Source: Candidatus Berkelbacteria bacterium (GTDB taxonomy: Bacteria; Patescibacteriota; UBA1384; 2-12-FULL-50-11). Taken from it: DNA of 57,267 bases. The stretch's first letter is position 1; each line of letters begins with the position of its first letter. Position numbers and translations under genes: made by a program. Where the stretch lies: assembly GCA_024654065.1 (NCBI GenBank), contig JANLIQ010000056.1, positions 1-57,267 of the forward strand, given 5' to 3'. The notes beneath the pieces were generated by a model, which saw nothing but the letters and a program-made list of their open reading frames with translations, had not been told where the DNA came from and made no database searches. Positions 7,641 to 55,855 of this stretch are shown here, piece after piece.

Positions 7641-7652
7641 ATTATAACTACG

Positions 7653-11827: not shown

Positions 11828-11864
11828 CACCGCCTGGAAATACCTTGCGTTAAATTTTCTCTTG

Positions 11865-11937
11865 CGCGCCCGGCAGGGGTCGAACCTGCGACTTTGTGCT
11901 TCGAAGGCACACGCTCTGTCCACTGAGCTACGGGCGC
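11865..11937 (-). tRNA. tRNA-Arg (anticodon TCG)
   Basis: Hand-folded cloverleaf: GCGCCCG/CGGGCGC acceptor, GCTC..GAGC D-arm, anticodon arm TGTGC-CTTCGAA-GCACA, T-arm GCAGG-TTCGACC-CCTGC. No encoded CCA. Confidence 0.9.
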
Positions 11938-11976
11938 ATTTATCTAACGTATTTTCCCAGAAAACAGTCTAAAAAT

Positions 11977-12951
11977 CTACCGTCTGATGGTTTTTGGAAC
12001 GATCTTTGGATAGTCGGAGAGCATCGAGTGCATTTCAGCTTTCGTCAGTAGGCCCGTTTCTGGACCAATCTTTGTAACAACTCCCGCAGCGTTTGCCATC
12101 CCCCAACGCATCGCTTCATCGATCGTTTCACCATGAAGCAGAGCTGCAGTAAAGCCAGCGCCATAGGCATCGCCACACCCAGTTCGCTGGACAACATTGG
12201 AAGGAATAATCTCGAGAAATAATAATTCATGTCCATCAAAACAGTACGCACCATTTGGGCCATCAGTAATTACTACGATCTTAACGCCGTAATCGTAGAG
12301 CGCTTCGGCTAATTTTGCGAATGATGCCGAGGCTGGTAGCTCAGTAAGATGCATCGCCTCTTCTTTATTAACAAACAAAATTTCTGTAATCGCAAAATAC
12401 TTTTTTAGAACCGTAACGCCGTCCTTAAGCTGAAATGAACCGGGATTAAAACTCAGTTTTGCTCCAGTCTTCTTGATAAACGCCGATACCTTCTCGTAAG
12501 CAGACTTGTAATCCTTGCCCATACTGGTCAAGTAAACCCAATCAACTGGTTCAAAGTTGGGTAGCTTATACTCACGAGGTTCGTGGTAAACAATCAGACT
12601 CCTCTCGTTCTGAAAGACAATCGCTGTTGAGTAGCTTGTCATCCCACTGAAATGCTGGATATAGCGCTGGTCGACACCTTCTTTTTCTAAGGCGTCTAGA
12701 ATTCTTTTACCGTTATCGTCATCCCCCACCACGCTATAAAGCTGACTCTCTAAGCCAAGACGAGCAAAAGATACGGATGTATTTGCCGCATTACCACCAA
12801 CAGTAAAAACTAACTTTTCCGCTAAAATCTTATCGGCATAGTGGATACAGAGCATGCATTTGGCGTGATGAAGCTCACACCTAACCTCGGCATCCTTCAA
12901 GAAAACAAAACAGTCTAGCGTCGCTTCACCAATCGATAGTACTTTTTTCAC
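11977..12951 (-). CDS. PfkB-family carbohydrate/ribokinase-like kinase
   Basis: Has an N-terminal GGNAANTSV motif and the C-terminal signature TGCGDAYGAGFTAAL (PfkB motif 2). Confidence 0.85.
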   Translation of the reverse strand: MKKVLSIGEATLDCFVFLKDAEVRCELHHAKCMLCIHYADKILAEKLVFTVGGNAANTSVSFARLGLESQLYSVVGDDDNGKRILDALEKEGVDQRYIQHFSGMTSYSTAIVFQNERSLIVYHEPREYKLPNFEPVDWVYLTSMGKDYKSAYEKVSAFIKKTGAKLSFNPGSFQLKDGVTVLKKYFAITEILFVNKEEAMHLTELPASASFAKLAEALYDYGVKIVVITDGPNGAYCFDGHELLFLEIIPSNVVQRTGCGDAYGAGFTAALLHGETIDEAMRWGMANAAGVVTKIGPETGLLTKAEMHSMLSDYPKIVPKTIRR

Positions 12952-13041
12952 TTACTTATCATAACAAACTTTTAAGGCCGACAGAGTGCGCACTGTCGGC
13001 CTTGAATTCGGGATTAGAGCGGGGGCCCTTTTTCCGGAAAC

Positions 13042-13563
13042 CTACACTTCCCCAGGAGCGGAAGTTTCCAGATACTTTTTGACCTTCCCAGGTAGCCAAA
13101 GTGTCGCGATAATAGTAGCCCTCTCCTTGCCTTCGCAACTTTGCCAAGCGACAATGTCGCCATCCTCCCTGCCGCTCAACGCCTGAAACATCGGACTGAG
13201 AGGAGTGACGATTAGCAGATCCTCAGAACCTGAGGCTACTTCAAACTTGGAGAGCAGGACGGCCTGTTCGGCCCCCTCCTCTGACGTTTGATCGAGGGGC
13301 GTCCACATCTTGACGAGTGCGCAGTCCCCAAGAATGAGTCCTGGCCCACCAGCTGGTCGTTCTTCGGGCAGACTCTTGAGCCAGCCGGAGAACTGAAATG
13401 ATGACTCGATGAGCCATTTCTCGACGCGTGCCAGCAAGCCGTTCGCCTGGAGTGTTTGTGCGATCGCTCCGCGATCACACTCACCGAAATCCAGTCCGTC
13501 CTTGAGTTTAGTCGGGTTGACAGCTATGCCGTCAAACAGTGAAGAGCGAGCCTTAACGCTCAT
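13042..13563 (-). CDS. Hypothetical protein with a GreA/GreB C-terminal-domain-like (Rnk-like) segment
   Basis: 173-aa GC-rich ORF. The segment LLIVTPLSPMFQALSGREDGDIVAWQSCEGKERATIIAT resembles the Gre-factor C-terminal motif (SP.g.AL.G...GD.V). The functional call is weak. Confidence 0.35.
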   Translation of the reverse strand: MSVKARSSLFDGIAVNPTKLKDGLDFGECDRGAIAQTLQANGLLARVEKWLIESSFQFSGWLKSLPEERPAGGPGLILGDCALVKMWTPLDQTSEEGAEQAVLLSKFEVASGSEDLLIVTPLSPMFQALSGREDGDIVAWQSCEGKERATIIATLWLPGKVKKYLETSAPGEV

Positions 13564-13699
13564 GTTATCCTCCGTGTTAATCCCTCCAGCATTTCTAGAG
13601 AGAACCGATCACAAACAACCGGTTTTTCTCTTATACCATAATTTGTCCAAGTTTCCCAGCTTAATTTTTCGTTTCTCATCTGTTAGAATATACGAGTAT

Positions 13700-13772
13700 G
13701 GTGCTAGTAGCTCAGTGGTAGAGCAATCGGTTGTGGTCCGATTGGTCGCAGGTTCGATCCCTGTCTAGCACC
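13700..13772 (+). tRNA. tRNA-His (anticodon GTG) with genomically encoded G-1
   Basis: G-1 followed by GTGCTAG/CTAGCAC acceptor stem and C73. Anticodon arm ATCGG-TTGTGGT-CCGAT, T-arm GCAGG-TTCGATC-CCTGT. Confidence 0.9.
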
Positions 13773-13814
13773 CTTTGAACCTGTACAAGCATATGCTATT
13801 ACTAGAAATACTGA

Positions 13815-14237
13815 TTGATAACATTTAGTGATAAGATCGTTAATGTAATGAAACCTAAAACTCATTCCCGTTTCGTCCGCTCTATCTATTTCTGGGTTGG
13901 TATCGTTGCAACACTGGCGTATCGAATCGTGATCGTCCTTAACCACATTAGCCCAACTTGGGTGCTAGCTTCCTGGTATATTGGCACGCTTGGCTTTATT
14001 ATCTACTTTGCCCATCGCTACCAAATATCGGAATTGCGGGCGAAATTAATTAAGAGAAATTCGCTGTCAGAAAAGATTAGTCGCGGCGACCAGCTATCGG
14101 CCGAAGACAAAGAAGCAATCGAATATATATTCAAAACCCTACAGTCATCGCGCGAGAAGTGGAACTATATTTTTATTTTCGTGTCGTCAGTTTTAGCGCT
14201 GATGGCTGGTATTTACCTAGATTTTATCGCCAAGTAG
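13815..14237 (+). CDS. Membrane protein (hypothetical, 3 TM)
   Basis: 140-aa ORF with three hydrophobic helices. An alternative ATG start is at 13848. Confidence 0.45.
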   Translation: MITFSDKIVNVMKPKTHSRFVRSIYFWVGIVATLAYRIVIVLNHISPTWVLASWYIGTLGFIIYFAHRYQISELRAKLIKRNSLSEKISRGDQLSAEDKEAIEYIFKTLQSSREKWNYIFIFVSSVLALMAGIYLDFIAK

Positions 14238-14249
14238 CGAGAGCAGATT

Positions 14250-16067
14250 TTACTTCTTGGCTTTGGCGCGTAGCGATGAATTAAGAATTCTTTTACGTAG
14301 TCGTAAGGATTTCGGCGTAGCTTCTAGTAGCTCGTCATCCTCAAGAAAGTCAATTGACTGTTCGAGACTTAGAATATTCGGTGGGGTAAGAGTAATAGCG
14401 TCATCACTCCCTGCTGCTCGAACGTTTGTTTGTTTCTTTTCTTTTGTAACATTAACTTCCAGATCGTTCTCCCGAGCGTGAAGACCAACGATCATGCCCT
14501 CATAAACTGGTGTTTGCGGATTAATAAAAGTAATTCCCCGCTGTTGGGCGTTGTTGAGACCATAAGAAACAGCCTTTCCAGACTCTGAAGCGATTAGTAC
14601 CCCATTACGCATCTTAGGAATTGCGCCACTAACTGGTTCAAACCGCAAAAATAGGGAGTTCATAGTTGCCGTACCACGAGATAGCGTTAGTAAAAGGTTA
14701 CGCAAACCCAGTAAACCTCGAGTAGGTATCTCAAACACCAATCTGGTTGTCCCGTCATCATTTTCGGTTTGTGAAAGTATAAGACCCTTTCGTTTCCCAA
14801 TCTCACCTGTTATGGGGCTTGAGTAATCGCTCTTAACGTCAACTGTTAGCTCTTCAACTGGTTCCTGCAATACTCCATCAATCATTTTCGTCACCACCTG
14901 TGGCTTACTAACCTGCATCTCAAAGCCTTCTCGACGAAGTGCTTCGATCAACACTGAAAGATGCAGCTCACCGCGACCCCAAAGAATATATTCGCCTGTT
15001 TCTCCAGGAGTCATTTTTAGAGAAACATTAACTTCTAGCTCTTTAATAATACGTTCGTAAATTTTTTGGCTAGTCAATTGCGTTCCCTCCTGTCCAACAA
15101 ATGGTGAAGTGTTGGCTGAAACAGCCATTTTTAACGTTGGTTCGGCGATTTGGAGTGTAGGCAAAGCCTCGGGAGTAATGGCATCGGCAATAGTGTCACC
15201 AATCCGACAATTTCTCAATCCAGTAATGGCAACTATGTCGCCTGATCGGGCCTCTTCAGATTGTAAGCGTTTTAGTCCGTGAGTGCTGTAGACTCTATCA
15301 ATCTTAGAGGTCTCTCTCCACCCATCTGGTGTACCGATTGCTACTGCTAGGCCAAGCTTAGCAGTACCGCGGGTAATTTTACCAATAGCATACTTACCCT
15401 GAAAATTGTCCCAATCAAGTGCTGTCACCAGCATTTGGAACGGTTCATTGTGAGCGGCAACTGGCGAGGGGATATGTTTTAATATCGCGTCAAAGATTGG
15501 CGTTAGATCCGTATCTGCGCTTAGCTGCTCGGTTGTTGGAGCGCTGTCCCAGGCCTTACCGTCCCGACCAACAGCATAGTAAACCGGAAACTCTAGTTGA
15601 GCAGCATCAGTTGCTAAATCCAAAAATAAATCAGCCGTATCACGCAAAACTTTATCTATTTGGGCGTCAGATTTATCTACTTTGTTAATAACTACAATTG
15701 GCCGAAGACCGAGCTCTAATGCCTTTTTTAAAACAAACTTAGTCTGTGGCATCGGACCTTCTTTAGCGTCGATAATCAACAGCGCTCCATCAGTCATCTG
15801 CAGTGTTCGTTCAACTTCGCCGCCAAAATCAGCGTGCCCTGGCGTGTCAACAATGTTTATTTTTACACCCTTGTATGTCACGGCAGTGTTTTTGGCCAAA
15901 ATTGTAATGCCTCGTTCTCGCTCCTGGTCGTTGGAATCCATAATCAAGGTCTGGCTCATCGCCGCTTCATTCTCACGAAAAGTGTGAGATTGCTTTAAAA
16001 GCCCATCTACAAGAGTGGTTTTTCCGTGATCAACGTGAGCAATGACGGCGATATTACGAATTGGCAT
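14250..16067 (-). CDS. typA: Translational GTPase TypA/BipA
   Basis: 605 aa starting [19 protein letters not shown], with [12 protein letters not shown] and NKVD motifs, EF-G-like domains and the TypA-specific C-terminal domain. Confidence 0.95.
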
Positions 16068-16069
16068 TT

Positions 16070-17263
16070 TTATTGAACGAACGTCAGGGCTTTACCTTTT
16101 TGATCGGCTCGTCCTGTTCGACCAATACGGTGGATGTAATCTCCGTAGCTTTGAGGAAGATCAAAATTAATAACATGGGTGACGTTAGGGATATCTAGTC
16201 CTCGAGCGGCAACATCCGTTGCTACAAGAATTTGAGTTTTGTTGTCTTTAAACTCGTTTAAGGATCTTTGGCGTTGAGATTGGCTCTTGTTACCGTGAAT
16301 GGAAGAAGCGCTAAAACCACGCTCTATTAGGGCGTCACATAGACGCTCTACACCGTGTTTGGTTTTACCAAATATTAGTACTTTCTTGCACTCATCTGTT
16401 CCTAACAATTCATGGAGAAGAGTCATTTTATGAAAGTTGTCTGTGAAGTGAATTACGTCCTGATCAACATTAACGGAGGTCTCACGCTTTTTGACGCTAA
16501 TGGTTTGCGGAGACTGCAGGAAGGAGTGAACCATGTTTTTGACTTCCGGAGCCATAGTGGCCGAGAAAAAAAGAGTTTGACGATTAACTGGTAATTTCCC
16601 AACCAACATTCGAATATCTTTGATGAATCCCATATCAACTAAACGATCAGCTTCGTCAATTACCAGATTTTGAACATCACTTAAGTGAAGTGTTCGACGC
16701 TCAAAGTGATCCTTAAGGCGGCCTGGAGTACCGATTATAAATTGTGGGCGACGTTGAAGTGATCGGTCTTGATGCCCGTAGCCGTTTCCGCCGATACAAA
16801 CTGCTGAGTAGATTGGTAGTCCGTATGCAAACTCTTTTAATTCTTCATCGATTTGCACCGCTAGCTCGCGTGTAGGAACAATTATCAGGGCTTTTTGACT
16901 CCGATCAGAAAGCATTTTATGAATTAATGGCAGTAAAAATACTGCAGTTTTACCGGTGCCGGTATCTGCTAAGCCAATAACATCACTTCCAGCCATAACA
17001 ACTGGAATTGCCCGGTCCTGAATTGGTGTTGGTGTTACGTAACCATGACGAATAACACGGTCAACGACCTGGTTATTTAAACCGAAATCGTCAAAAGAGT
17101 GTGTTGGGGCGTACGGCAATTCAACCGGCAAGTCAGCCGATTTATTTATAAACAGCGACTGATTGACGCCGTTTGAGCCTGAGCTTGTACTGCGACGGCC
17201 AAAGCGTTGCTGGCGACTTCTCCCCAACGAGGGACGCTTCGAAGTTCTTGTATTGTTGTACAT
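16070..17263 (-). CDS. DEAD-box ATP-dependent RNA helicase
   Basis: Has the Q-motif (FDDFGL...TPIQ), motif I ADTGTGKT, PTRELA, DEAD (VIDEAD), SAT and HRIGRTGRA. Confidence 0.9.
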   Translation of the reverse strand: MYNNTRTSKRPSLGRSRQQRFGRRSTSSGSNGVNQSLFINKSADLPVELPYAPTHSFDDFGLNNQVVDRVIRHGYVTPTPIQDRAIPVVMAGSDVIGLADTGTGKTAVFLLPLIHKMLSDRSQKALIIVPTRELAVQIDEELKEFAYGLPIYSAVCIGGNGYGHQDRSLQRRPQFIIGTPGRLKDHFERRTLHLSDVQNLVIDEADRLVDMGFIKDIRMLVGKLPVNRQTLFFSATMAPEVKNMVHSFLQSPQTISVKKRETSVNVDQDVIHFTDNFHKMTLLHELLGTDECKKVLIFGKTKHGVERLCDALIERGFSASSIHGNKSQSQRQRSLNEFKDNKTQILVATDVAARGLDIPNVTHVINFDLPQSYGDYIHRIGRTGRADQKGKALTFVQ

Positions 17264-17504
17264 TTTCTAAAAACAGCCTTTCTACTGTTTGGTTCGACCA
17301 AGTTTGGTCGGTGGCTCCCAGACAGTAAGGCCACTTGTTTTTAGCAACAGGGCAACAATCCGAAAGCAAATATTATTTTGCTTGACGCACTTCTGTGACA
17401 CAGAGTATACGTAAAGTCCTGATATCATAGCAGTAGTTTGGATAAATGTCCAGCTCAAGAGGGTCCAATCGGCAAAGGGAGGTAGTTTCTGGTAACCTGA
17501 AGCT

Positions 17505-18752
17505 ATGGGGAGAGTAGCTGGGAAACATAGAGTAGTTATTGTGGGTGGTGGTTTCGGAGGTATTCGTGCTTCACAAGAGTTAGCCAAATATAGTGACGAA
17601 TTTGACATTACCTTAGTTTCAGATAAATCTCACTTTGAGTACCACGCCGCATTGTACCGGGTTGTTACAGGACGCTCACCGTTAGAAGTCTGCATACCTT
17701 TATCTACGATTTTCGAAAGTTCACCAGTAAATGTTGTTGAAGATACTATCCAGACTGTTTATCCAAAAACTAAACAGATACTTGGAAAGGATGGCTCCAA
17801 ATATTCATACGACTCGCTCATTCTCGCTCTTGGAAGTGAGAATGCCTATCTCAATGTTCCTGGGCTCAAAGAGCATTCATTCACCTTAAGATCCATCAAC
17901 GACGCCTTGCGACTAAAGGAACATATTCATGAGATTTTTATCAATGCGGCCATCAGCCTAAAGAACGGTACTCGCCAACCGATCCACATAGTCTTGGTTG
18001 GAGGCGGACCAACTGGGGTGGAGCTGTCCGGTGAGTTAGCAATTTACGCTCGTCATATGGCAAGACGCCACCGCCTTGACCCTAATACAATTATCATTGA
18101 TCTTTTTGAATCTGGTGAGCGATTACTAGGAACGCTAGATAAGAAAATTTCTGAGATAGCTTTTGAGCGCCTTCATTACTTGGGTGTAAATATTTTTCTT
18201 AATACCCCAATCCTTGAAAACCGAATTGAGGCTGCATATCTCGCTGACATGAAACTAAAAACTAAGACTTTAATTTGGACGGCTGGGGTAACGACAAACC
18301 CTCTTTACGCAAGAATAAAGGGTTTAAGCTTCAACGCTACAAACAAGGTCCTTGTTGACCTTTCTATGCAAGCTAAGGGTTTCCATGATCTTTACGTTAT
18401 AGGAGACGCTGCGGCAAGTATGTATAGCGGTATGGCTCAATCAGCCCTCTACGATGGTGAGTTCGTAGCCGAATGCTTAAGAAGAAAGTTGCATGGCCGA
18501 CCGATAGCTACCTACAACCCTCATAAACCTATTTTTGCTATTCCAGTTGGACTCGGTTGGGCAATCGTAGTCACAAAAATAGGTGTGTTTCGTGGAAAAT
18601 TGGGTTGGATACTACGTCGTGCGGCTGACTTTAGATTCTTTAGCTCGATTCTTCCCTTACAAAAGGCTTTGATAGCGTTTTCTGACGGATATCAGCTAAG
18701 CGAGACTTGCCCTATTTGTTCAAAACCAAATCGTTTGCACAGTAAGGTGTAA
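17505..18752 (+). CDS. Type II NADH dehydrogenase-like FAD-dependent pyridine nucleotide-disulfide oxidoreductase
   Basis: Two dinucleotide-binding motifs (VVIVGGGFGG and VLVGGGPTGVE) and the GD motif VIGDAA. Confidence 0.75.
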   Translation: MGRVAGKHRVVIVGGGFGGIRASQELAKYSDEFDITLVSDKSHFEYHAALYRVVTGRSPLEVCIPLSTIFESSPVNVVEDTIQTVYPKTKQILGKDGSKYSYDSLILALGSENAYLNVPGLKEHSFTLRSINDALRLKEHIHEIFINAAISLKNGTRQPIHIVLVGGGPTGVELSGELAIYARHMARRHRLDPNTIIIDLFESGERLLGTLDKKISEIAFERLHYLGVNIFLNTPILENRIEAAYLADMKLKTKTLIWTAGVTTNPLYARIKGLSFNATNKVLVDLSMQAKGFHDLYVIGDAAASMYSGMAQSALYDGEFVAECLRRKLHGRPIATYNPHKPIFAIPVGLGWAIVVTKIGVFRGKLGWILRRAADFRFFSSILPLQKALIAFSDGYQLSETCPICSKPNRLHSKV

Positions 18753-23918: not shown

Positions 23919-25916
23919 CTATAACTTTATCCGCTTTAACTGTAGGGCGTTAACAACAACAATCACAGAAGACATTGCCATCAAGAAGGCTCCAACATCG
24001 GGTCTCAAAAATAGTCCCCACTTAGAAAATACTCCCGCAGCAGCGGGAATCGCTACAACGTTGTACCCAACCGCCCAAACCAAATTCTGAATCATTTTTG
24101 TGTAAACTTTCTTAGATAAAACTAAGAGTCTAGAAATATCTGCCGGATTATTCTTAATTAGGATTATGTCTCCCGCTTCAACTGTTACGTCCGTTCCTGC
24201 CCCTATCGCCACCCCCACATTGGCTTGAATCAAAGCCGGAGCGTCGTTAACGCCGTCGCCGACCATCATCACGGCCTCGCCTTTATCTTGGAGCTCTTTG
24301 ACTTTCTTGTATTTGTCTTCCGGCAGGACACTAGAAAAATAGGTGTCTATCCCGAGTTCCACCGCCACATACTTAGCCACCCCCTCGTTATCACCGGTGA
24401 TCATCGCCACCTTTACTCCGGCTTGATGTAAACAATCGACAGCTTCTTTGGACTCTGGACGGATTTTGTCGGCGACGGCGATTAAGCCCAATACCTCCTT
24501 GTTGCTTCGCAGTATCGCCACGGTTTTTCCTTGATCGGACAGTTCGGATAACTTTTTCTCCAACTCTCCGAGCTCGACACCATCTAAGATTTTTTCATTA
24601 CCGAGCCAAAACTGCTGACCGTCAATTCTACCAGTAACACCCTGACCAGCCAGATTTTTGAAGTCTTGGATCTGCTTAGAGGAAACCTTGCTTTCGCTGG
24701 CTTTCTCAAGCACGGCTCTGGCTAACGGATGTGAAGACCCGGCCTCCAACGCTGAGGCGATGGTCAGGAGCTTGTTTTCATCCTCCGCTACAATGTCGGT
24801 TACGGCCGGTTTTCCTTCTGTTAATGTGCCAGTTTTGTCAAAAGCGACAACACTAATATTGCGTGCCGCTTCAAGTTTCTTCAGAGACTTTAAGAAAATT
24901 CCATTCTTAAGAGCTAGCGAGGTAGCGGTGGTCGAAACTGTCGGAATAGCTAACCCCAGCGCGTGCGGGCAAGCGATAACCAACACTGTCACCGCTAAAG
25001 TCAAAGCAAAAGCAAAAGTCTGTCCTTCCACCAAAGTCCAAACTAGAACTGTCGCAATGGCTGTACCAAGCGCCACAAATGTCAAAAGCGAAGCTACCCG
25101 ATCGGCTAAATACTGTAGTTTGGGTTTGGTAGTCTGGGCGGTTTCAACCAATTGTTGAATATGTCCAACCGTTGAATCTAAGCCGACTTTTTCTAGTCTT
25201 ATTGTCAACGATCCATCTAGACAAATCGAACCGGCAATTACTTTGTCGCCAGCTTTTTTGCTGATTGGTTTGGATTCGCCCGTCACCAGCGCCTCATCCA
25301 TATTGGCCTGGCCGTCGATAATCACCCCATCGGCCGGTAGTTTTTCGCCGGGCTTAACAATGACCGTGTCTCCAGGCTTAATCTGCTCCAGCGGCACATC
25401 TTTGCTTTGACCGTCCACTAAAAGATGGACTTCTTTCGGCAACAATTTCGCCACTTCCTGCAGGGCGCTTCCGGCGGCGGCAGTCGATTTAGCTTCCAAA
25501 TAGTGACCAAACAGCAACACCCAAATTAGGGTCGAGATTTCCAGGAAAAATTCCATACCGCCAAAACTGGGGATGAACGTGGAAGCGACGGAGAATAGAA
25601 AGCCACTGGCGACCGCCAGCGACACTAGCGTCATCATACCGTAACTTTTGGCTTTAATTTCGTGCGTGGCGTGTTCAAAGAAAACTAAAGAGAAATAGAA
25701 AATTATCGTCGAGATAGCAAAACCAACATACTGTCGCCCCTCAAAATCCGGTGTCCCCAAGAATTTCACCCCAACATTACTAACGAGAAGAAGCGGAACC
25801 AGTAGAGCGGTAGCGTACCAAAACCGACGCAGAAACATCATCGCGTCGTCCATTGTCATCGCGTGATGACCGCCATGACTATGGTTATGTTCGGCGTGGT
25901 CGTGACAGTTGTCCAT
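23919..25916 (-). CDS. P1B-type heavy-metal (copper) ATPase, CopB-like (CPH motif, His-rich N-terminus)
   Basis: Has TGES, the transmembrane CPH motif (VIACPHALGLA), DKTGTLT, MITGDN and GDGVNDAP. The N-terminus is MDNCHDHAEHNHSHGGHH and there is no ferredoxin-like HMA domain. Confidence 0.9.
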   Translation of the reverse strand: MDNCHDHAEHNHSHGGHHAMTMDDAMMFLRRFWYATALLVPLLLVSNVGVKFLGTPDFEGRQYVGFAISTIIFYFSLVFFEHATHEIKAKSYGMMTLVSLAVASGFLFSVASTFIPSFGGMEFFLEISTLIWVLLFGHYLEAKSTAAAGSALQEVAKLLPKEVHLLVDGQSKDVPLEQIKPGDTVIVKPGEKLPADGVIIDGQANMDEALVTGESKPISKKAGDKVIAGSICLDGSLTIRLEKVGLDSTVGHIQQLVETAQTTKPKLQYLADRVASLLTFVALGTAIATVLVWTLVEGQTFAFALTLAVTVLVIACPHALGLAIPTVSTTATSLALKNGIFLKSLKKLEAARNISVVAFDKTGTLTEGKPAVTDIVAEDENKLLTIASALEAGSSHPLARAVLEKASESKVSSKQIQDFKNLAGQGVTGRIDGQQFWLGNEKILDGVELGELEKKLSELSDQGKTVAILRSNKEVLGLIAVADKIRPESKEAVDCLHQAGVKVAMITGDNEGVAKYVAVELGIDTYFSSVLPEDKYKKVKELQDKGEAVMMVGDGVNDAPALIQANVGVAIGAGTDVTVEAGDIILIKNNPADISRLLVLSKKVYTKMIQNLVWAVGYNVVAIPAAAGVFSKWGLFLRPDVGAFLMAMSSVIVVVNALQLKRIKL

Positions 25917-26752
25917 TATTCCCCATCCTTTAGACTAATTTTGAGCCGTTTGAAAATAATTACCAGGACGAACACCAGGACCAGCAGAGCGAGAATGGCA
26001 AATACCGGGTTTTCGTTGAGAAATTTTGAAATATTGCGACCGATCGTGAGCACGCCAACGGTAAACTCGCTTTCAACGGCGACATTAAGTCGACCATTTA
26101 AGACATTAATGCCCAGATATAGGCCGTACAGGATCATCACGGCGCCACCAAGCAGACTACCAACAGTCGTAACGCCGAGTGGTTTATTGAAGAACGCCCG
26201 AACCTTCATCAGTCCGGAGGTACTCATGAGCATGGCACCAAGTAGCAGCGGCAGGACCATGCCGGCCACATAACTCAAGCCCACAATGAGCGCCATGAAT
26301 GTACTTGGTGAAAGCGTGGTCAGGGCGATAGCCCCTAGCAGAACTGGGGCGCAACAAGCCGTTGCCAGGCCAGAAGTCACTCCCAGCAGAAAGAGCGAGC
26401 CGATCGTCGCTTTGCCCTTAAGTTCACTCGGCCGGATAAACATCGGCAGTTTGAATTGAAAAACCAGTAGCAGACCTAATAGAATCATTACGATCGCCCC
26501 AATGCCGTAAAAATACGGGTGGTAGTCGTTAAAAATGTTGATTAGTTCTCGAAATCCGAGCGCGATTGGCAACATCACCGCGGCAATCCCCAACGAGAAA
26601 ACCAATGTAGCCAACAAGACCCGAACCCGCGTTTGGACAATCTGCGCCAGGTATGTCGGCAGTAATACTGTCAGGCAACACGGCGCAAATAAGGCGATCG
26701 CACCGGAAACAAAGCCAACGACTATACTGGCACTCCAGAAAATAACGTCCAT
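25916..26752 (-). CDS. CcdA/DsbD_2-like polytopic membrane protein with two membrane-embedded Cys-Cys pairs
   Basis: About 8 TM helices with motifs APCCLTVLLP and ATACCAPVLL. Its stop overlaps the copB-like start by 1 nt (TAATG). Confidence 0.5.
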   Translation of the reverse strand: MDVIFWSASIVVGFVSGAIALFAPCCLTVLLPTYLAQIVQTRVRVLLATLVFSLGIAAVMLPIALGFRELINIFNDYHPYFYGIGAIVMILLGLLLVFQFKLPMFIRPSELKGKATIGSLFLLGVTSGLATACCAPVLLGAIALTTLSPSTFMALIVGLSYVAGMVLPLLLGAMLMSTSGLMKVRAFFNKPLGVTTVGSLLGGAVMILYGLYLGINVLNGRLNVAVESEFTVGVLTIGRNISKFLNENPVFAILALLVLVFVLVIIFKRLKISLKDGE

Positions 26753-27240
26753 TACTTGACGTTGGCCGATACCGTTAGTCGAATTTCTTTAGAATTATTT
26801 ATCTTGAAGGTGGAATAACGCTCGATCGGACCGTACACTGGCATTAAGGCCGGTTCGTAAGTAACTCCAATCTCGGCTGTTTCACCTGGAGCTAGATCGT
26901 GATTCCAGGCCCTTTCGGCGCTCGACATATGAGCGGGCATATTAAACATCGGTGAGGTTTCGCCGTTGATTTTAACTTCCGTCATCGTGCAGTTACAGCT
27001 AGTTTCAAATCTACTCAAATTCATTTTTTCGCTACTTGTATTTCTAAAAGTGAAATTAGCAGTTTTTTTATCGTCGACTGTCATTTCGCCCAAATTCATC
27101 TTTTCACTCGAAAGTTCGTAGGTACCGATAAGACTGTTTGTACTGACGGTATTTTCCTCCGAACCCTTAGACCCAACAAAGTATATAGCCAATATCGCGA
27201 CTAAGCTAAGTCCAATCACAGATAAAACAAATTTAGACAT
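26752..27240 (-). CDS. DUF1573-like secreted protein with CxC motif
   Basis: Signal/TM anchor followed by FTFRNTSSEKMNLSRFETSCNCT, the DUF1573 pattern (F.F.N.G...L.I..v..SCGCT). It overlaps the next gene by 1 nt. Confidence 0.55.
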   Translation of the reverse strand: MSKFVLSVIGLSLVAILAIYFVGSKGSEENTVSTNSLIGTYELSSEKMNLGEMTVDDKKTANFTFRNTSSEKMNLSRFETSCNCTMTEVKINGETSPMFNMPAHMSSAERAWNHDLAPGETAEIGVTYEPALMPVYGPIERYSTFKINNSKEIRLTVSANVK

Positions 27241-27248
27241 TTCCCTCC

Positions 27249-27530
27249 TTAAGACTTATTTGCTAAGCGACTAACTTTAATTATTTCTTCAATCATTTTT
27301 TTCTGTTTGCCCATCGAGCCGGATTCCACTCCCTCGGCAAAACAAGTGTGGAGATGGTCTTGCATTACTTGCTGATGGACAGATTTCAATAATCCAATAA
27401 CAGCAAGGTTCTGTTGCATAATATCTACACAGTATTGGTCTCCCTCCACCATGGAGGTAATTTTCTTCAGTAAACTCTCCGCCTTCTTGAGCCCTATCAA
27501 AATCTTTTGTTTGTCTTTTTCTATACCCAT
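27249..27530 (-). CDS. csoR: CsoR/RcnR-family metal-sensing transcriptional repressor
   Basis: 93 aa with a Cys...His...Cys ligand pattern (DQYCVDI ... QDHLHTC), characteristic of the CsoR (DUF156) four-helix repressor. It is the first gene of the copper operon. Confidence 0.8.
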   Translation of the reverse strand: MGIEKDKQKILIGLKKAESLLKKITSMVEGDQYCVDIMQQNLAVIGLLKSVHQQVMQDHLHTCFAEGVESGSMGKQKKMIEEIIKVSRLANKS

Positions 27531-27669: not shown

Positions 27670-28058
27670 TGGTGGAGCTGGCGAGAGTCGAACTCGCGTC
27701 CGAAAACAAACGAACCAAATCTTCTACAAGCTTAGACAGTTTACTTTTCTTAGATGGCTGGAATAGAAACAGACAAAATTTCCAGTCATAGCATCATCTT
27801 AATCTTGTGAATGGGCCGATGAGAACCCAAACGCTACCCTACGATTATGACGCTTCGCTGTTTTAGTAGAGATCAAACAGGGAAACGGTACTGGTGTTTA
27901 GGCCAATACTGGTTGAGCGACGAAGCTACCAAACGCGTTTGCTACAGTAGCTTTGACTTTGCTCATAACGTTTGCACGTATTTTTTTGTACTCTAAGGCA
28001 GGTACTCTCCGCTTGCAAATTTGGTTGTTAAAGTTCCCGTCGAAGCCATTACAGCCCC
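27670..28058 (-). ncRNA. ssrA: tmRNA (SsrA), tag reading frame 27898-27975
   Basis: The 5' end GGGGCUGUAAUGGCUUCGACGGG pairs with the 3' end ...GGACGCGAGUUCGACUCUCGCCAGCUCCACCA (tRNA-Ala-like acceptor and T-arm). An A-rich run then GCA AAC at nt 84 resembles the E. coli resume context. The tag ORF encodes ANVMSKVKATVANAFGSFVAQPVLA-stop. Confidence 0.85.
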
Positions 28059-30415: not shown

Positions 30416-30691
30416 ATGCTAACTAAAAGTGATCTACAAAATATCGAGGCGCTCTTCGACAAAAAATTCGATGAGAAATTTGATCAGAGATTCAAGCCGC
30501 TGAAGGTTGAATTATCCGATCTAATCGACCATAAACTCGAGCCGCTGAAAAAGGATATTAAAAAGATCAAAACCGACGTCGCCCAAACCAGGAAAGATAT
30601 CAATATGGTTATTGGAGTTTTCGACAACGACAATACGAAACTACGCCAGCGAGTCGAAATTATTGAAGATAGGGTAGGGATTAGACATTAG
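30416..30691 (+). CDS. Small charged coiled-coil protein (hypothetical)
   Basis: 91-aa K/D/E-rich helical ORF with no recognised family. Confidence 0.4.
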   Translation: MLTKSDLQNIEALFDKKFDEKFDQRFKPLKVELSDLIDHKLEPLKKDIKKIKTDVAQTRKDINMVIGVFDNDNTKLRQRVEIIEDRVGIRH

Positions 30692-30722
30692 TCCCAGCAT
30701 CAGTAAGATTTGGGGTTGATTT

Positions 30723-30744
30723 AATGTAAAGTTTCCTTTACATT
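30723..30744 (+). promoter_or_regulatory. Perfect 22-bp palindrome AATGTAAAG-TTTC-CTTTACATT, 8 nt upstream of the HTH-Hsp20 start codon
   Basis: Read directly from the sequence: 9-bp arms and a 4-nt spacer. A third TGTAAA half-site abuts the ATG at 30753. It is either an operator for the XRE domain or a 5'-UTR hairpin. Confidence 0.6.
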
Positions 30745-30752
30745 ATGTGTAA

Positions 30753-31358
30753 ATGTCAGCGGAATTACGGTTACTTTTACGAGATTTGCGCCAAGCCCAA
30801 GAGTTAAGTCAAGATGAGCTAGCTCATCAATTAGGTATATCTCGTCAATCCATTATCTCACTTGAACAGGGCGCATACTTGCCAAGTTTTCCGTTACTTA
30901 TAAATATGATCCAGTTTTTTAACTGCGACTTAGAGGAGCTTGTCGAAGGCCTCAGCCAGAATGTGGCCCAATTGCCCTCAGTTGCCGAGCTGGCTATTCA
31001 GTCAATTGAACAGCCTGCCACCCGCCCAGCGGCCGGTGCGATAAATGTCTACGAAACTGCCATTGAGTACGAAGTGCAAGTTCAAGCGCCCGGGTTCAAG
31101 GAAAATGAGATCCACCTGGAATTTTCAGGTGATACGCTGACGATTACCGCCCAAACTTCTATTGACCAACGGGAGGCCGCCGAAAAACTAATCCGCCGCG
31201 AGTGGGAGTGCGACTCCTTCACCCGTCAAGTGCGCTTTGCTCACCCTATCGATGTTGATCAAGTCGAGGCCAAGCTCGCTGATGGAATGTTAACCATCCA
31301 CACCCCAAAGGTAGAACCGGTCAAACCTAAGATTAAAAAGATCGAAGTGAAGAAATAG
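30753..31358 (+). CDS. Fusion protein: N-terminal XRE-family HTH domain + C-terminal Hsp20/alpha-crystallin domain
   Basis: The N-terminus LRDLRQAQELSQDELAHQLGISRQSIISLEQG is a Cro/C1-type HTH. The C-terminus INVYETAIEYEVQVQAPGFKENEIHLEFSGDTLTITAQ...FTRQVRFAHPIDVDQVEAKLADGMLTIHTPK is an alpha-crystallin domain. Confidence 0.8.
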   Translation: MSAELRLLLRDLRQAQELSQDELAHQLGISRQSIISLEQGAYLPSFPLLINMIQFFNCDLEELVEGLSQNVAQLPSVAELAIQSIEQPATRPAAGAINVYETAIEYEVQVQAPGFKENEIHLEFSGDTLTITAQTSIDQREAAEKLIRREWECDSFTRQVRFAHPIDVDQVEAKLADGMLTIHTPKVEPVKPKIKKIEVKK

Positions 31359-31384: not shown

Positions 31385-31408
31385 GAGGTCTGAACGACCT
31401 CTTTTCTT
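31385..31408 (+). terminator. Rho-independent terminator after the HTH-Hsp20 gene
   Basis: GAGGTC-TGAAC-GACCTC followed by TTTTCTTCT. Confidence 0.5.
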
Positions 31409-32017
31409 CTACTTAACTTCTATCGAATTAATCGTATCCCCAACGGCAATCTTTTTAACAACATCGTTGCCGGAAGTTACGCGACCGAAGATTGTGTAAT
31501 TCTTAGGGAGGGTTTCGTTATCTTTAAGCATTATGAAGAACTGCGAGCCGTTGGTGTTGGGACCAGAATTGGCCATCGCCAGAACGCCCTCTAAATACCC
31601 CGTCTTGTAACTGGCCGTATTAGGATTTAGCTCGTCTTCAAACTTAGCGCCAAAAATTGAAGCGCCACCAGTACCGTTGCCGCTCGGATCACCACCTTGG
31701 ATGACAAAGCCCGGCTCAACACGGTGAAAAGTAAGATTGTCGTAGTAGCCGTTTTTAGCCAGAGTCGCGAAGTTCATAACTGTCTTTGGCGCATCGTTAG
31801 GATAGAGCTCGAGGGTAATATCGCCTTTGTCAGTTTTGATTACGGCTGAAGTAGCGCTCACTTTTTCAAATGTTGTTGGATCTGCTGTCATGGTTGTTGT
31901 CTCCTTTGTAGGGCTAGTTGTATTTGTTACGGTGTCTGTTGATTTATTTTGCGGAACGAGAGAAAAAATACCGATGATAATGGCCACGAAAACTGCAAGA
32001 TATATAATATTTTTCAT
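31409..32017 (-). CDS. Membrane-anchored cyclophilin-type peptidyl-prolyl cis-trans isomerase
   Basis: N-terminal TM helix followed by a cyclophilin core ([34 protein letters not shown]). The start was set at ATG 32017 because the tracked extension to 32077 reads through tRNA-Val. Confidence 0.85.
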
Positions 32018-33112: not shown

Positions 33113-33495
33113 CTGAAAGAGATCACACTCTATCTGTTACCAGTAGATTGCGGTTCTAAAAATCACACACCTAACGGGAATGTTAGTACCTCTATTCGTA
33201 AGGAAGTTCTATTCCCAGACGTGTTCAAAGTGCAGTAAACTAACAGCATAAGATTTCCCGTGCCTACAAAAAAGAGCTTATCGAATTCAGTAAGACCTAC
33301 AGAGACAAATACTCCCTTGAGCTTGTCGACAAAGATGTGCTAGAAACGGCCAGCTACATAATGGAGCCCCTCTTGCTAACAAGCCCTAAGCTTTACAAGT
33401 CGTACAAAAAGCTGAACTAACCTGGTTGACAACCTGTCTCCAATCTGCTATTGTTCTGCTTAAACTCTCGCGAGAGAGGGCGTTCTTAGGAGACG

Positions 33496-33909
33496 ATGAT
33501 GCCAGAAGAATACTCAGACGTAAACGAAACCGCAGCTTTTGGTTTCTTGGTCAATGCGAGTGACCGGCTAAAAGGGGCGGACGGTGACACGGGAGCGATA
33601 TTCCCCATGAGCGACGCGGAAGATTTGAGTCGTGGGGCTCGTTTCATTCCCGAAGCCGTGACTGATGCACGACGCAGTGGCCAGAAGGTCAACTTCGTTT
33701 ATGATCGCAGTGCATGCTGCTGGTATTGGGAGATGCCCGATGGTTCTCGCCTTTATCACTAGGAGCGGGCTACCGATAATGAGGTTGGTCAGGCCAACGG
33801 TCGCCAGTTCGTAGTAAGCACATCGGATTTCGAAGGTGGCTCTGGCCCGTGTCCTATGTGTGGAAATCCGCACACAAGAGGGGAGGAAGTACCAAAACCA
33901 AAACCCTAG
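33496..33909 (+). pseudogene. GC-rich small ORF interrupted by an in-frame TAG (33760-33762); hypothetical, possibly decayed
   Basis: The 88-codon ORF ends ...DGSRLYH-TAG. The same frame then continues ERATDNEVGQANG...GGSGPCPMCGNPHTRGEEVPKPKP-TAG (33907-33909), and a strong hairpin terminator follows. Confidence 0.3.
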
Positions 33910-33920
33910 CTCGAATCACT

Positions 33921-33965
33921 GCGCCCCGCGGACTTCATGTCTGTGGGGCGCTACTTGTTTGTGTT
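33921..33965 (+). terminator. Rho-independent terminator
   Basis: GCGCCCCGC-13 nt-GTGGGGCGC (9 bp including one G-U) followed by the T-rich tract TACTTGTTTGTGTT. Confidence 0.55.
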
Positions 33966-34174
33966 AGACTTCTCCTCTGCAAAACACAATTCTTCTTCAT
34001 TTAAACCTGCTGCAGAGTGCGAATGCGTTCTTGCCAAGCCCGCAAACAGGTAAAGTTAAAGTTGTCTTATTGTATAAGACGTGCGAGAATCACCTCGAGC
34101 AGCTACCAAGGTTTTGGTTACTGTTAGTTCATCACAATTGGGCTGCAATTTTACCAACTTCTAGGAGGAACCCC

Positions 34175-37024
34175 GTGATTCAAGTTGTCAGAGTTCAAGG
34201 AAAGATCGGCGATCCACGCGGGGAGGACCTCGCAGCGGAAATTCGATCAACCCTTGGCATCGTCTCTGTCGAGCAGGTACGAACCGTCAAGGTCTACCGA
34301 CTCGAAAATGTGTCCGTCGAACAGGCCGACACACTAGCTCACCAGCTCCTGGCCGATCCAATCAGCCAGTCATATTCGCTCAATCAGCCGACCGTTATAG
34401 GCGCTTTTGCCGTACGTGAGGTCGCCTACAAACCCGGGGTAATGAACCCCGAGGTTGCCTCGATTCTCAAATCAGCGGCTGACCTTGGCATCACCGAACT
34501 GGTCGCGGCCGACACCAGCTACGAGTACCATTTCTTCGTCAACGGTTCGTTAGATGCGAACCAGCTGAAGACAATCGTCTCCCGCTTGCTGGTCAATAAA
34601 ACCGTTCAGCGTGTTTTGGAAAGCGAGCCGACTACCTTGTTGATCGGCGGCCAAGCCGGTCCGATCCGAACTATCGCCATCCGTGAACTGGACGACTTGG
34701 CGCTGATAGCACTCTCTGCAGCGATGCAGCTACATCTCAATCTTGAGGAGATGCGAGTGATTCAGGAGTACTTCCGCGACCTTGGTCGCGATCCGCGAGA
34801 CGCCGAGTTGGAGACTTTGGCGCAGACGTGGAGCGAGCACTGCGGACACAAGACCTTCAAGGCCAAGCTCGTTGTCAACGGAGTTTCAAAACCGCCTCTG
34901 ATGAGCCGTCTGAAGGCCGCATCCATGGCCTGCGAAAGTCCGATCGTTCTCTCGTCGTTCGTCGACAATTCTGGTGTGATCCGTTTTGATGAAAAGTTCG
35001 GTATTGCCGGCAAAGTCGAAACCCACAATAGCCCCAGCGCTATCGAGCCACGGGGCGGAGCTATGACTGGTAGCGGCGGCGTCTTTCGGGACGTTATGGG
35101 AACGGGTCGGGGCGCGCGAGTGATCGCCAGTACCGATATCTTCTGTTTCGCCCCGCCCGATTTACCAGATGATGAGTTGCCCAAGGGCTGTCTTCACCCA
35201 CGCTACCTCCTCCGACAGGTTGTCGGTGGTGTCCGTGATTACGGCAATCCGATGGGCGTACCAACCCTCAACGGTTCGGTTCACTTCCACTCCGACTTTA
35301 GAGCCAAGCCAACGGTAATCGTTGGTGCTTACGGCTTGATTCCGATCGAAGACTGTCAGAAAGGCGAACCGCAAATCGGCGACTTGATCGTCACTGTTGG
35401 CGGCAAGACCGGACGTGACGGTGTCCATGGTGCCACTTTCTCAAGTGGCGAAATGACACCTGACACAATCGAAAACGCCAGCGTCGTCCAGATCGGTAAC
35501 CCGATCGAGGAGAAGCGTACGAGCGACGCCCTCATCAACTGTCGCGATGCCGGTCTCATTCGAGCGGTAACCGACTGCGGTGCAGGTGGATTCTCGTCGG
35601 CAATTGGTGAGATGGGATCGACAATCGGTGCTCGAGTCAACCTGGAAGAGGCGCCATTGAAGTATAGCGGGCTTGCTCCATGGGAGATCTGGGTCTCCGA
35701 GTCACAGGAGCGAATGGTTGTGGCGGTCCCGCCAGAATCGCTCGCAAAGTTCCTGCGGACATGCAAGGGCTTCAACGTTGAGGCAACGACTCTTGGTGCG
35801 TTCACCGGCGACGGACAGCTACTCGTCACTTACAACGGCGAGGTGGCTTGTGATCTGCCGATGAGCTTTCTGCACGACGGTTTGCCACAACGAACGATGA
35901 AGGCCACCTGGATCGACCGGGAAGTTAGTAGCATCGGCTCCATCTCCCCAGATCCCGTAACGGCCTACCACCGAGTTATGGCGCACCTCGACGTCGCTTC
36001 GAAAGAGCCGATCGTCAGAATGTACGACCATAGCGTCCAGGGTAGCATGGTGTTACCGCCATTTGTCGGCGTCTTCCAAGACGGACCAACAGACGCGGCA
36101 GTACTCCAACCGCTCCCCAACTCATCGCGGGGGATTGTCATCAGTCACGGCTTAAACCCGGTTCTCGATCGGATTCATCCGTACTGGGGTAGTGTTTGGG
36201 CAATCGCCGAGGCGCTCTCTAACTACGTTGCCGTCGGTGGCTACTTGACGCAAGCAGCTCTGATCGACAATTTCATCTGGCCATTTCCAGACGAAGAGTC
36301 ACTGGGCGAGCTCGACCAAGCAGTCGATGCATGCGTCGATATCATGCGAGAGCTCCGTACCCCGTTTGTTTCCGGCAAGGACTCGCTTTCGAGCACCTAC
36401 CGATATCCAGACGGGTCGGTCCTGAAGATACCGCCGGTTCTTTGTGTCTCAGCGTTCGGGTCAATCGACAACGTCGAGAGGACCAAAACGTCAGACTTCA
36501 AGAAAGTCGGTTCGGCCATCATTCTTGTTGGTCGCCCGGATTTCTGGGGTATGGGAGGATCTGTTTACTCGCGAGTTCACAACGTCCAAAACGGTCGTGT
36601 TCCGCGAATACATCCCTCCGAGCTGGCTATCACTCTTCGGGAAACGACGCGGTTGCTGCTTTCAAGCGACGTCCTGGCTTGCCATGACGTCAGCGAAGGT
36701 GGAGTTGGCGCCACAATTGCCGAGATGTGCTTTGGTGGCAACCTCGGCGCCGTGATCGATCTAAGCCGCTTTGAGAACAAACTCGACCTCGGGCCACTTA
36801 GCGGTTTCTTCAACGAAACTGCTGGTTGCTTCGTTGTCGAGGCGCGACAAGATCTGCTTGGATATATCAGCGACTACCTGACCGAGACTCCCTGGAGTCT
36901 AATCGGCATCACTCAACACAGTGACGAAATCGTGGTTGAGGACAAGTCCATTCACCTCTCCGTTTCGCTCTCGTCACTCAAGAACAGCTGGCAACAGCCA
37001 GTAAAGGAGGTCTTCCACTCATGA
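34175..37024 (+). CDS. purL: FGAM synthase: tandem PurS-like modules fused to PurL (phosphoribosylformylglycinamidine synthase II)
   Basis: GTG 34175 sits 6 nt after AGGAGG; the tracked ATG at 34031 adds a non-homologous leader. Two PurS-like units (VIQVVRVQGKIGDPRGEDLA...; AVREVAYKPGVMNPEVASIL...) are followed by PurL signatures (AQTWSEHCGHKTF, ETHNSPSAIEPRGGA, GNPMG, VTDCGAGG). Confidence 0.9.
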   Translation: MIQVVRVQGKIGDPRGEDLAAEIRSTLGIVSVEQVRTVKVYRLENVSVEQADTLAHQLLADPISQSYSLNQPTVIGAFAVREVAYKPGVMNPEVASILKSAADLGITELVAADTSYEYHFFVNGSLDANQLKTIVSRLLVNKTVQRVLESEPTTLLIGGQAGPIRTIAIRELDDLALIALSAAMQLHLNLEEMRVIQEYFRDLGRDPRDAELETLAQTWSEHCGHKTFKAKLVVNGVSKPPLMSRLKAASMACESPIVLSSFVDNSGVIRFDEKFGIAGKVETHNSPSAIEPRGGAMTGSGGVFRDVMGTGRGARVIASTDIFCFAPPDLPDDELPKGCLHPRYLLRQVVGGVRDYGNPMGVPTLNGSVHFHSDFRAKPTVIVGAYGLIPIEDCQKGEPQIGDLIVTVGGKTGRDGVHGATFSSGEMTPDTIENASVVQIGNPIEEKRTSDALINCRDAGLIRAVTDCGAGGFSSAIGEMGSTIGARVNLEEAPLKYSGLAPWEIWVSESQERMVVAVPPESLAKFLRTCKGFNVEATTLGAFTGDGQLLVTYNGEVACDLPMSFLHDGLPQRTMKATWIDREVSSIGSISPDPVTAYHRVMAHLDVASKEPIVRMYDHSVQGSMVLPPFVGVFQDGPTDAAVLQPLPNSSRGIVISHGLNPVLDRIHPYWGSVWAIAEALSNYVAVGGYLTQAALIDNFIWPFPDEESLGELDQAVDACVDIMRELRTPFVSGKDSLSSTYRYPDGSVLKIPPVLCVSAFGSIDNVERTKTSDFKKVGSAIILVGRPDFWGMGGSVYSRVHNVQNGRVPRIHPSELAITLRETTRLLLSSDVLACHDVSEGGVGATIAEMCFGGNLGAVIDLSRFENKLDLGPLSGFFNETAGCFVVEARQDLLGYISDYLTETPWSLIGITQHSDEIVVEDKSIHLSVSLSSLKNSWQQPVKEVFHS

Positions 37025-55843: not shown

Positions 55844-55855
55844 AAACACTGACAG

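Follow-up and report, generated by a model that had tools for sequence, protein, structure and literature searches.

A small heat-shock protein fused to a helix-turn-helix domain as a candidate autoregulated repressor of chaperone genes in Berkelbacteria-like Patescibacteria

The DNA analysed here, called the window throughout, is a stretch of 57,267 nucleotides (nt) from Candidatus Berkelbacteria bacterium (contig JANLIQ010000056.1 of assembly GCA_024654065.1, positions 1 to 57,267, forward strand). It contains a gene for a 201-residue protein in which an XRE/Cro-C1-type helix-turn-helix (HTH) domain is joined to an alpha-crystallin domain, that of small heat-shock proteins (sHSPs). We propose, with a probability of roughly 0.7, that this fusion protein is an autoregulated repressor of a heat-shock regulon in Berkelbacteria-like Patescibacteria; the proposal builds on the conservation of the two-domain protein and of an inverted repeat that occupies the same promoter position at fusion genes and at chaperone genes.

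In the mechanism that we envisage, the CylR2-like XRE HTH, paired as a dimer through the fused alpha-crystallin domain, would occupy the inverted repeat TGTAAAG-N4-CTTTACA. This repeat fills the spacer of a predicted sigma-70-type promoter (TTGACA, 17 nt, TACATT) and overlaps its -10 box, and bound protein would thereby block RNA polymerase. The same promoter–operator module would govern the regulator’s own gene and, in the same genomes, dnaK, groES-groEL, grpE and a short dnaJ. Under heat or proteotoxic stress the sHSP part would be remodelled or drawn to unfolded clients, taking the repressor off the DNA and de-repressing the chaperone genes; newly made fusion protein would then both act as a chaperone and re-establish repression, closing a negative feedback loop.

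The fusion protein and its family

Pfam recognises both halves of the protein: HTH_3 covers residues 9–63 (48.2 bits; cut-off, 23) and HSP20 covers residues 101–200 (64.3 bits; cut-off, 20.8); the sHSP and XRE models of NCBIfam matched partially and below cut-off. With 35 homologues as input, AlphaFold2 modelled the monomer as two confident domains, each with a predicted local distance difference test score (pLDDT) of ~90: a five-helix HTH (residues 9–63, with helices at 9–15, 20–27, 31–38, 46–56 and 60–63) and a beta-sandwich (residues 97–186), joined by a disordered linker in which residues 70–92 have a pLDDT below 50. A Foldseek comparison with the PDB gave sHSPs as all of the top 50 hits (best E 4e-9), and a profile search of PDB sequences likened the C-terminal part to Hsp16.0 and Hsp16.9 (E 1e-17) and returned the 66-residue CylR2 as the nearest solved relative of the N-terminal HTH (E 8e-12 to 5e-10). 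A sequence-only reading of this DNA had noticed an XRE HTH and an Hsp20 domain in a single 201-residue open reading frame (ORF), and on this Pfam, AlphaFold2 and Foldseek agree; by its matches, the protein is assigned both to the sHSP family and to the CylR2-like group of XRE HTH proteins.

The residues expected to matter in each domain are strongly conserved among the 35 homologues. The recognition-helix region, from S30 to E38, is invariant; residues 173–180 read AKLADGML, with A173, G178 and L180 invariant; and I197 and V199 are kept in at least 90% of members. A C-terminal IxI/V is the motif through which sHSPs oligomerise. The commonest size in the family is ~233 residues, and in these longer members a typical sHSP N-terminal arm of ~35 residues separates the HTH from the crystallin domain.

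Among 5.8 billion proteins searched, the HTH_3 plus HSP20 architecture recurs in more than 110 clusters at 90% identity, which range from 91% down to ~40% identity to the query. Every cluster with a named organism comes from Patescibacteria, Berkelbacteria or Saccharimonadales, with no annotation beyond ‘Hsp20 family protein’. When 1.84 billion representatives were searched exhaustively with a profile, 63 matched at E ≤1e-30, mostly full-length fusions of 190–260 residues; judged from these searches, the family is modest in size and confined to one lineage. The concern that the ORF might be two genes, separate in other assemblies and joined here through a frameshift, is settled by the many independent assemblies, spanning more than 110 clusters, that carry both domains in one protein. 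Apparent single-domain ‘halves’ (P0110, P0117, L016/L023) lie on contig ends or on contigs of 1–2 kb and are assembly breaks. Two Glutamicibacter candidates (L032, L034) were rejected as fusions; they are HTH-only homologues 3′ of a membrane protein and have only sites with two mismatches to the repeat described below.

Variants of the architecture were also seen. Reduced fusions occur in L100 (positions 7612–8060, 142 residues) and L045 (190 residues), the former retaining only the HTH, the last crystallin strands and the IxV tail (positions 53–101 of the Pfam HSP20 profile); a regulator of the L100 type might dock on a separate sHSP through its IxV motif. The profile search also returned proteins with 8–11 tandem copies of a CylR2-like HTH (P0383, 1002 residues; P0384, 883 residues; P0399, 703 residues).

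The inverted repeat at fusion and chaperone promoters

The repeat AATGTAAAG-TTTC-CTTTACATT lies at 30723–30744, its 3′ end 8 nt before the ATG of the fusion gene, exactly where the sequence-only reading had placed it. It had been described there as a perfect 22-bp palindrome, a description that needs correction: because the central TTTC is not self-complementary, the inverted repeat is interrupted, with arms of 9 bp (or 10 bp, counting 30722 and 30745) on either side of a 4-nt spacer; a 7+4+7 core of it is conserved. It occurs once in the window at up to three mismatches, where 0.01 chance matches would be expected.

We compared 32 fusion loci, namely the window and 31 loci from species-representative genomes. 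TGTAAAG-N4-CTTTACA is found upstream of the fusion gene in all 32, the copy in L028 having one mismatch and standing ~95 nt away, and in 420 kb comprising the window and the related genome loci there is one perfect copy per fusion locus. The core stays constant among orthologous proteins down to ~28% identity, and the 4-nt spacer varies. The arrangement of the surrounding promoter is equally regular: TTGA(C) precedes the core in 31 of the 32 loci, at 4 nt in 27 and at 5 nt in four, and the -10 hexamer is TACATT in 25, TACAAT in six and TACACT in one. The half-site centres are 11 bp apart, a spacing of one helical turn that would fit a pair of HTH domains and from which we infer dimeric binding; the alpha-crystallin domain would be the obvious dimerisation module. 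The earlier suggestion of a dimeric HTH operator serving autoregulation thus finds strong support in the conservation across 32 of 32 orthologues, and the repeat is very probably the promoter-embedded operator of this HTH. A third TGTAAA half-site, also part of that suggestion, is indeed present at 30748–30753, abutting the start codon, but it is not conserved and reads GGTAAA in the closest relatives.

Although the promoter itself hardly changes, the distance from the -10 box to the start codon spans 6–95 nt. It is 6–8 nt at half of the loci (16/32, including the window with 8 nt), where no Shine-Dalgarno sequence is seen and the spacing fits a leaderless mRNA; it is 10–13 nt, a very short leader, at eight, and at least 16 nt at another eight, most of which have a GGAG/AGGA-type motif. 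The absence of a Shine-Dalgarno sequence in the window, already remarked in the sequence-only reading, is accounted for if the fusion mRNA is leaderless, as it appears to be from the position of the -10 box. In about half of the lineages the regulator’s own mRNA is accordingly predicted to lack a leader, while its targets have canonical leaders, and this difference may alter how feedback is timed. Since a terminator-like hairpin (31385 to 31401 or 31409) follows the fusion gene, we regard the gene as monocistronic.

Homologues of the HTH outside the fusion family connect the repeat to this particular DNA-binding domain. Single-domain HTH homologues of 65–81 residues occur outside Patescibacteria, in hosts with G+C contents of ~28–66%, and their genes usually lie 3′ of a gene for a small multi-pass membrane protein; of the four clusters that these membrane proteins form, two match DUF2178. 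Such HTH–membrane-protein operons carry TGTAAAG-N4-CTTTACA upstream, often as two copies 21–26 bp apart (example metagenome loci are L082, L085, L087, L099, L104, L120, L122, L134 and L137), and a gene for a small homologous HTH comes after at least some of the operator-bearing membrane-protein genes. Because operons with only the HTH bear the same repeat, the repeat goes with this HTH subfamily whatever its partner. CylR2 represses as a dimer bound to an inverted repeat at a promoter and has the membrane protein CylR1 as its partner, and a CylR1/CylR2-like layout looks like the ancestral context of this HTH and its operator. From these comparisons, a fused chaperone appears to have replaced the membrane protein as input in the Patescibacteria lineage, which seems also to have recruited the operator for its chaperone genes.

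That recruitment is suggested by a metagenome scan with the pattern TTGAC-N4-TGTAAAG-N4-CTTTACA, which matched at least 120 loci, with 122 sites in those listed. Among these listed matches, 44 of the 122 sites precede a fusion gene or HTH homologue, 21 precede dnaK, 13 groES and four grpE; 26 precede small multi-pass membrane proteins, and 14 have nothing recognisable downstream, several of them at contig ends. The chaperone promoters share the layout of the fusion promoter (cTTGACAAAATGTAAAGnnnnCTTTACAnT), with leaders of 35–145 nt that in most cases include a GGAG-type ribosome-binding site. Further operator sites stand 5′ of short dnaJ genes on contigs that also bear an operator-preceded dnaK. 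Two of the motif-bearing metagenomic DnaK proteins (L113, L142) belong to entries named ‘Patescibacteria group bacterium’ by NCBI. Degenerate operators with two mismatches were seen at 15356 in L161 (CGTAAAGCAAACTTTACT), 5′ of a metallophosphatase–dnaJ operon, and at 7748 in L164 (CGTAAAGCAAACTTGACA), ~43 nt before dnaJ; both genomes carry the fusion, and these sites suggest that dnaJ is under weaker control.

Regulator and putative targets can be placed together in several genomes. JALHMV010000001.1 (109,143 bp) has an operator-preceded dnaK and the fusion gene on one contig (L164 and L008; record coordinates 10,635–18,536 for dnaK and 62,910–73,596 for the fusion), as does Ga0131077_10000003 (803,959 bp), and a match between records points to the same arrangement in JBBUAP010000001.1 (495,617 bp) and BOKZ01000001.1 (685,065 bp). 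The first of this latter pair is from the closest genome relative of the window, with a fusion protein 82% identical to that of the window. DnaK matches were also assigned to further fusion-bearing contigs, namely JAJTYJ010000001.1 (253,146 bp) and contigs of 75,148 bp (with fusion P0060) and 41,083 bp (with fusion P0106). All four dnaK loci retrieved from fusion-bearing contigs have a perfect operator after TTGAC, 40–50 nt 5′ of dnaK. In Berkelbacteria RIFCSPLOWO2_01_FULL_50_28, the fusion (80% identical to that of the window) is on MEZX01000001.1, and MEZX01000002.1 of the same assembly has a groES-groEL operon with gTTGACAAATGTAAAGCAAACTTTACAAT 43 nt before groES. The operators of known heat-shock repressors are missing from this picture: the 314 kb made up of these chaperone loci and the window contain no controlling inverted repeat of chaperone expression (CIRCE), no HspR-associated inverted repeat (HAIR), and a single CtsR-like box, which is internal to a dnaK coding sequence. 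No chaperone gene lies near the fusion gene in the window or in the ±5-kb flanks of 39 genome loci, so the regulon would be dispersed rather than an operon.

An alternative is that the fusion protein binds no promoter but its own and that the repeats at chaperone genes serve another factor or are non-functional. Many small XRE regulators are purely autoregulatory, and the site 5′ of the fusion gene is the sole one in the window and in the ±5-kb flanks of the 31 orthologous loci. Set against this are the identical core in the same -35/-10 register at dnaK, groES and grpE promoters, the enrichment of chaperone genes (38 of the 122 sites among the matches listed), the presence of regulator and sites on the same contigs and the invariance of the recognition helix across the family; we therefore regard a purely local role as unlikely.

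The repressor model, its alternatives and the remaining features of the window

The position of the operator speaks to the direction of regulation. The fusion protein could instead be an activator or dual regulator that binds the spacer as MerR-type proteins do and activates transcription under stress; the site does lie between the -35 and -10 boxes, as for MerR-family activators, and GakR, a CylR2-like homologue, has been reported as a positive regulator. MerR-type activation, however, depends on overlong spacers of 19–20 nt. The promoters considered here combine a near-consensus -35 (TTGACA) with a 17-nt spacer of optimal length and a usable -10, and should fire unaided, and the operator that fills the spacer overlaps the -10 box in the manner typical of steric repression. 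We accordingly favour steric repression and think activation quite unlikely.

A role without regulation, in which the HTH is a nucleoid anchor or an N-terminal oligomerisation module of a DNA-tethered chaperone, would agree with the intact sHSP hallmarks (AxxxDGxL and the C-terminal IxV) and with the HTH sitting where the usual sHSP N-terminal region would be, but it is improbable given that a specific 7-4-7 operator is conserved together with the gene and the invariant recognition helix, and is placed precisely in the promoters of linked genes.

The sequence-only reading had also considered the repeat as RNA, an AU-rich hairpin next to the start codon that follows the logic of the ROSE and fourU RNA thermometers. 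Such an element would be transcribed within the 5′ untranslated region and would melt in heat to permit translation; to this possibility we give almost no credence. The gene is of heat-shock type, and RNA from 30716–30790 would fold into a hairpin of 10 bp (minimum free energy, -15.9 kcal/mol), yet the folding z-score is just -1.8, and no Rfam thermometer family matched, whether in the window at the gathering threshold or in 30600–30900 at E ≤10. Across the 32 loci the repeat is in fixed register with the -35 and itself holds the -10, which puts the predicted transcription start downstream of it, and its distance to the ATG is as variable as that of the -10 box (6–95 nt). The hairpin has no Shine-Dalgarno sequence that it could mask and does not pair with the AUG, which stands 8 nt 3′ of it; at dnaK and groES the same element lies 35–145 nt before the start codon, distant from the GGAG ribosome-binding sites. 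Moreover, the arms are invariant, with no compensatory changes or covariation, and the loop varies, as expected of a protein-binding site rather than a covarying RNA stem.

With the repressor model preferred, its sensing step is the more tentative part. Heat remodels sHSP oligomers and unfolding clients sequester them, so that withdrawal of the repressor from DNA could follow from either event. There is a precedent for an sHSP as sensor, since Escherichia coli IbpA represses translation of its own mRNA and that of rpoH, giving negative feedback on the heat-shock response (PMC10410725; bioRxiv 10.1101/2020.04.20.050740), and is reported to be an aggregation sensor (PMC10410725; PMC10474464; bioRxiv 10.1101/2020.04.20.050740). 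By this analogy the fused sHSP domain may be the stress sensor, for which we would put the chances slightly below even. Similarly, the complete picture of a covalent chaperone–repressor, in which an sHSP would itself be the lineage’s master heat-shock regulator, a single polypeptide that senses unfolded protein, controls dnaK, groESL, grpE, dnaJ and itself, and serves as a first-line chaperone, is one that we hold tentatively, at a little less than an even bet. The one-component sensor of proteotoxic stress that had been suggested for this gene is plausible on the present comparisons, and its scope would be larger than first proposed, as the operator is also found at dnaK, groESL, grpE and dnaJ.

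Several points weigh against the repressor model. Support for it is wholly computational, with DNA binding, repression and sensing all inferred. The -35 box of the window, TTGATT, is weak: it agrees with the consensus at just 4 of 6 positions, and for this reason a generic promoter scan made no call for the window promoter (8 of 12 consensus positions, threshold 9); the promoter assignment therefore rests on conservation among orthologues and not on the generic scan. TTGAC was part of the metagenome scan pattern, so that only sites in this promoter register could be found. The window itself has the autoregulatory site and no chaperone genes, and the regulon is therefore extrapolated to this organism from relatives whose fusion proteins are 80–82% identical. 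Finally, the alignment shows the window protein and its nearest relatives to be short of ~30 arm residues in comparison with the 233-residue members; the N-terminal arm is the usual contributor of sHSPs to client binding and higher oligomers, and with a shortened arm client titration in the clade of the window may differ or be weaker.

The coordinates of the fusion gene, its promoter and other features of the window are collected in Table 1. The gene directly 5′ of the fusion gene encodes a 91-residue coiled-coil protein without a significant Pfam match; it is present in L023 and L014 and absent in L001, where an FtsX permease gene abuts the promoter, which places it outside the system. Elsewhere in the window, the transfer-messenger RNA (tmRNA) gene has an ARAGORN-predicted tag peptide that is unusually long (25 residues, ANVMSKVKATVANAFGSFVAQPVLA). 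The CsoR-type metal-sensing repressor leads a same-strand cluster that is probably a copper-resistance operon; the His-rich 665-residue protein at the end of the cluster presumably resembles a heavy-metal P-type ATPase. A 351-residue reverse transcriptase adjoins ~850 bp of ORF-poor DNA and might be part of a retron, a diversity-generating retroelement or a group II intron. The ~0.9–1.2 kb that precede the conserved part of a PurL-like ORF have no convincing ORF and no Rfam match, and the true start of that ORF probably lies downstream of the listed TTG.

Table 1. Positions of the fusion gene, its predicted promoter elements and other features in the window
Feature	Position	Strand	Evidence
Coding sequence of the HTH–sHSP fusion, 201 residues, ATG start	30753–31358	+	ORF, Pfam, alignment, AlphaFold2
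XRE/Cro-C1-type HTH, residues 9–63, recognition-helix motif SRQSIISLE	30777–30941	+	Pfam HTH_3, alignment, AlphaFold2
Flexible linker, residues 64–96	30942–31040	+	pLDDT, alignment gap
Alpha-crystallin (HSP20) domain with AxxxDGxL motif (A173–L180) and C-terminal extension	31041–31352	+	Pfam, Foldseek
C-terminal I-x-V motif (I197-E198-V199), sHSP oligomerisation hook	31341–31349	+	Alignment of 35 homologues
Predicted -35 box, TTGATT (TTGACA in most orthologues)	30716–30721	+	Conservation in orthologues
Promoter spacer	30722–30738	+	Between predicted -35 and -10
Operator core, TGTAAAG-TTTC-CTTTACA (7+4+7)	30725–30742		Conserved in orthologues
Predicted -10 box, TACATT, within the right operator arm, 17 nt past the -35	30739–30744	+	Conservation
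Predicted transcription start, at the ATG or ≤2 nt from it (leaderless)	30751–30753	+	Inferred from -10 position
Terminator-like hairpin with T-runs on both strands, common to the convergent cyclophilin gene	31385–31409		Sequence scan
Coiled-coil protein, 91 residues	30416–30691	+	
tmRNA gene	27670–28058	-	Rfam, 152 bits
CsoR-type metal-sensing repressor	27249–27530	-	Pfam Trns_repr_metal
Same-strand cluster led by the CsoR-type gene	23919–27530	-	
Interval before the conserved part of the PurL-like ORF	33114–34300		
PurL-like ORF	34031–37024		
Reverse transcriptase, 351 residues	54441–55496	-	Pfam RVT_1, E 8e-27
ORF-poor DNA	55497–56340		

Comparison with known heat-shock regulators

The proposed circuit shares its targets and logic with HrcA/CIRCE, in which a repressor on an inverted repeat at dnaK and groESL promoters is coupled to a chaperone in negative feedback, and with HspR/HAIR, an autoregulated repressor of dnaK and clpB operons that is titrated when its chaperone is busy with clients. 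The components differ. The fusion protein matches no HrcA, MerR–HspR or CtsR family in Pfam or NCBIfam, and the CIRCE operator (TTAGCACTC-N9-GAGTGCTAA) and the HAIR operator (CTTGAGT-N7-ACTCAAG) are the elements for which the 314 kb gave no match; as neither repressor family nor operator corresponds, the likeness to HrcA/CIRCE, HspR/HAIR and CtsR is functional only. The placement of the chaperone differs too: GroEL acts on HrcA in trans, and HspR, which has a MerR-type HTH, uses as co-repressor the separate ATP-dependent Hsp70 DnaK, whereas here an ATP-independent sHSP is covalently joined to the DNA-binding domain.

Two other systems involve an sHSP directly. RheA of Streptomyces albus is, like the proposed regulator, an autoregulated repressor linked to a small heat-shock gene; its regulon, however, is only hsp18 and rheA, its operator is another one, regulator and sHSP are separate genes rather than one polypeptide, and dnaK and groESL are among the putative targets only in the fusion system. 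In RheA, as in CtsR, temperature acts directly on the repressor by intrinsic thermosensing. IbpA of E. coli is likewise an sHSP that represses its own synthesis and that of the master heat-shock regulator as a reported aggregation sensor, but it acts on mRNA 5′ untranslated regions at the level of translation and without a dedicated nucleic-acid-binding domain, whereas the fusion protein has an HTH and would act on transcription. The nearest solved relative of that HTH, the Enterococcus faecalis cytolysin repressor CylR2, represents a type that is single-domain, has a membrane partner and controls its own or bacteriocin operons, often through tandem operators 21–26 bp apart; in the fusion, a chaperone domain takes the place of the membrane-protein input, and single operators stand at chaperone promoters. 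Our best reading is of a chaperone-feedback heat-shock repressor whose parts differ from those of the known systems and whose chaperone is covalently linked to it.

In the literature that was searched in full text, neither an HTH–sHSP fusion regulator nor this operator is described, nor is heat-shock regulation in the candidate phyla radiation (CPR), and stress-response regulation in the ultra-small Patescibacteria/CPR appears to be undescribed; the locus offers a defined regulator, an 18-bp operator and a candidate regulon. For metagenome-assembled genomes of the CPR, the operator offers a means of annotating heat-shock regulons, and it could serve as a compact stress-responsive switch. Known heat-shock repressors either are coupled to a chaperone that is a separate protein, GroEL for HrcA and DnaK for HspR, or are themselves sensitive to temperature, as CtsR and RheA are. 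If the proposal is true, an sHSP-fused repressor would be the most compact form of chaperone-titration feedback and a transcriptional counterpart of the IbpA aggregation sensor, and would provide these organisms with a minimal heat-shock circuit, suited to reduced genomes, in place of HrcA, HspR or sigma-32.

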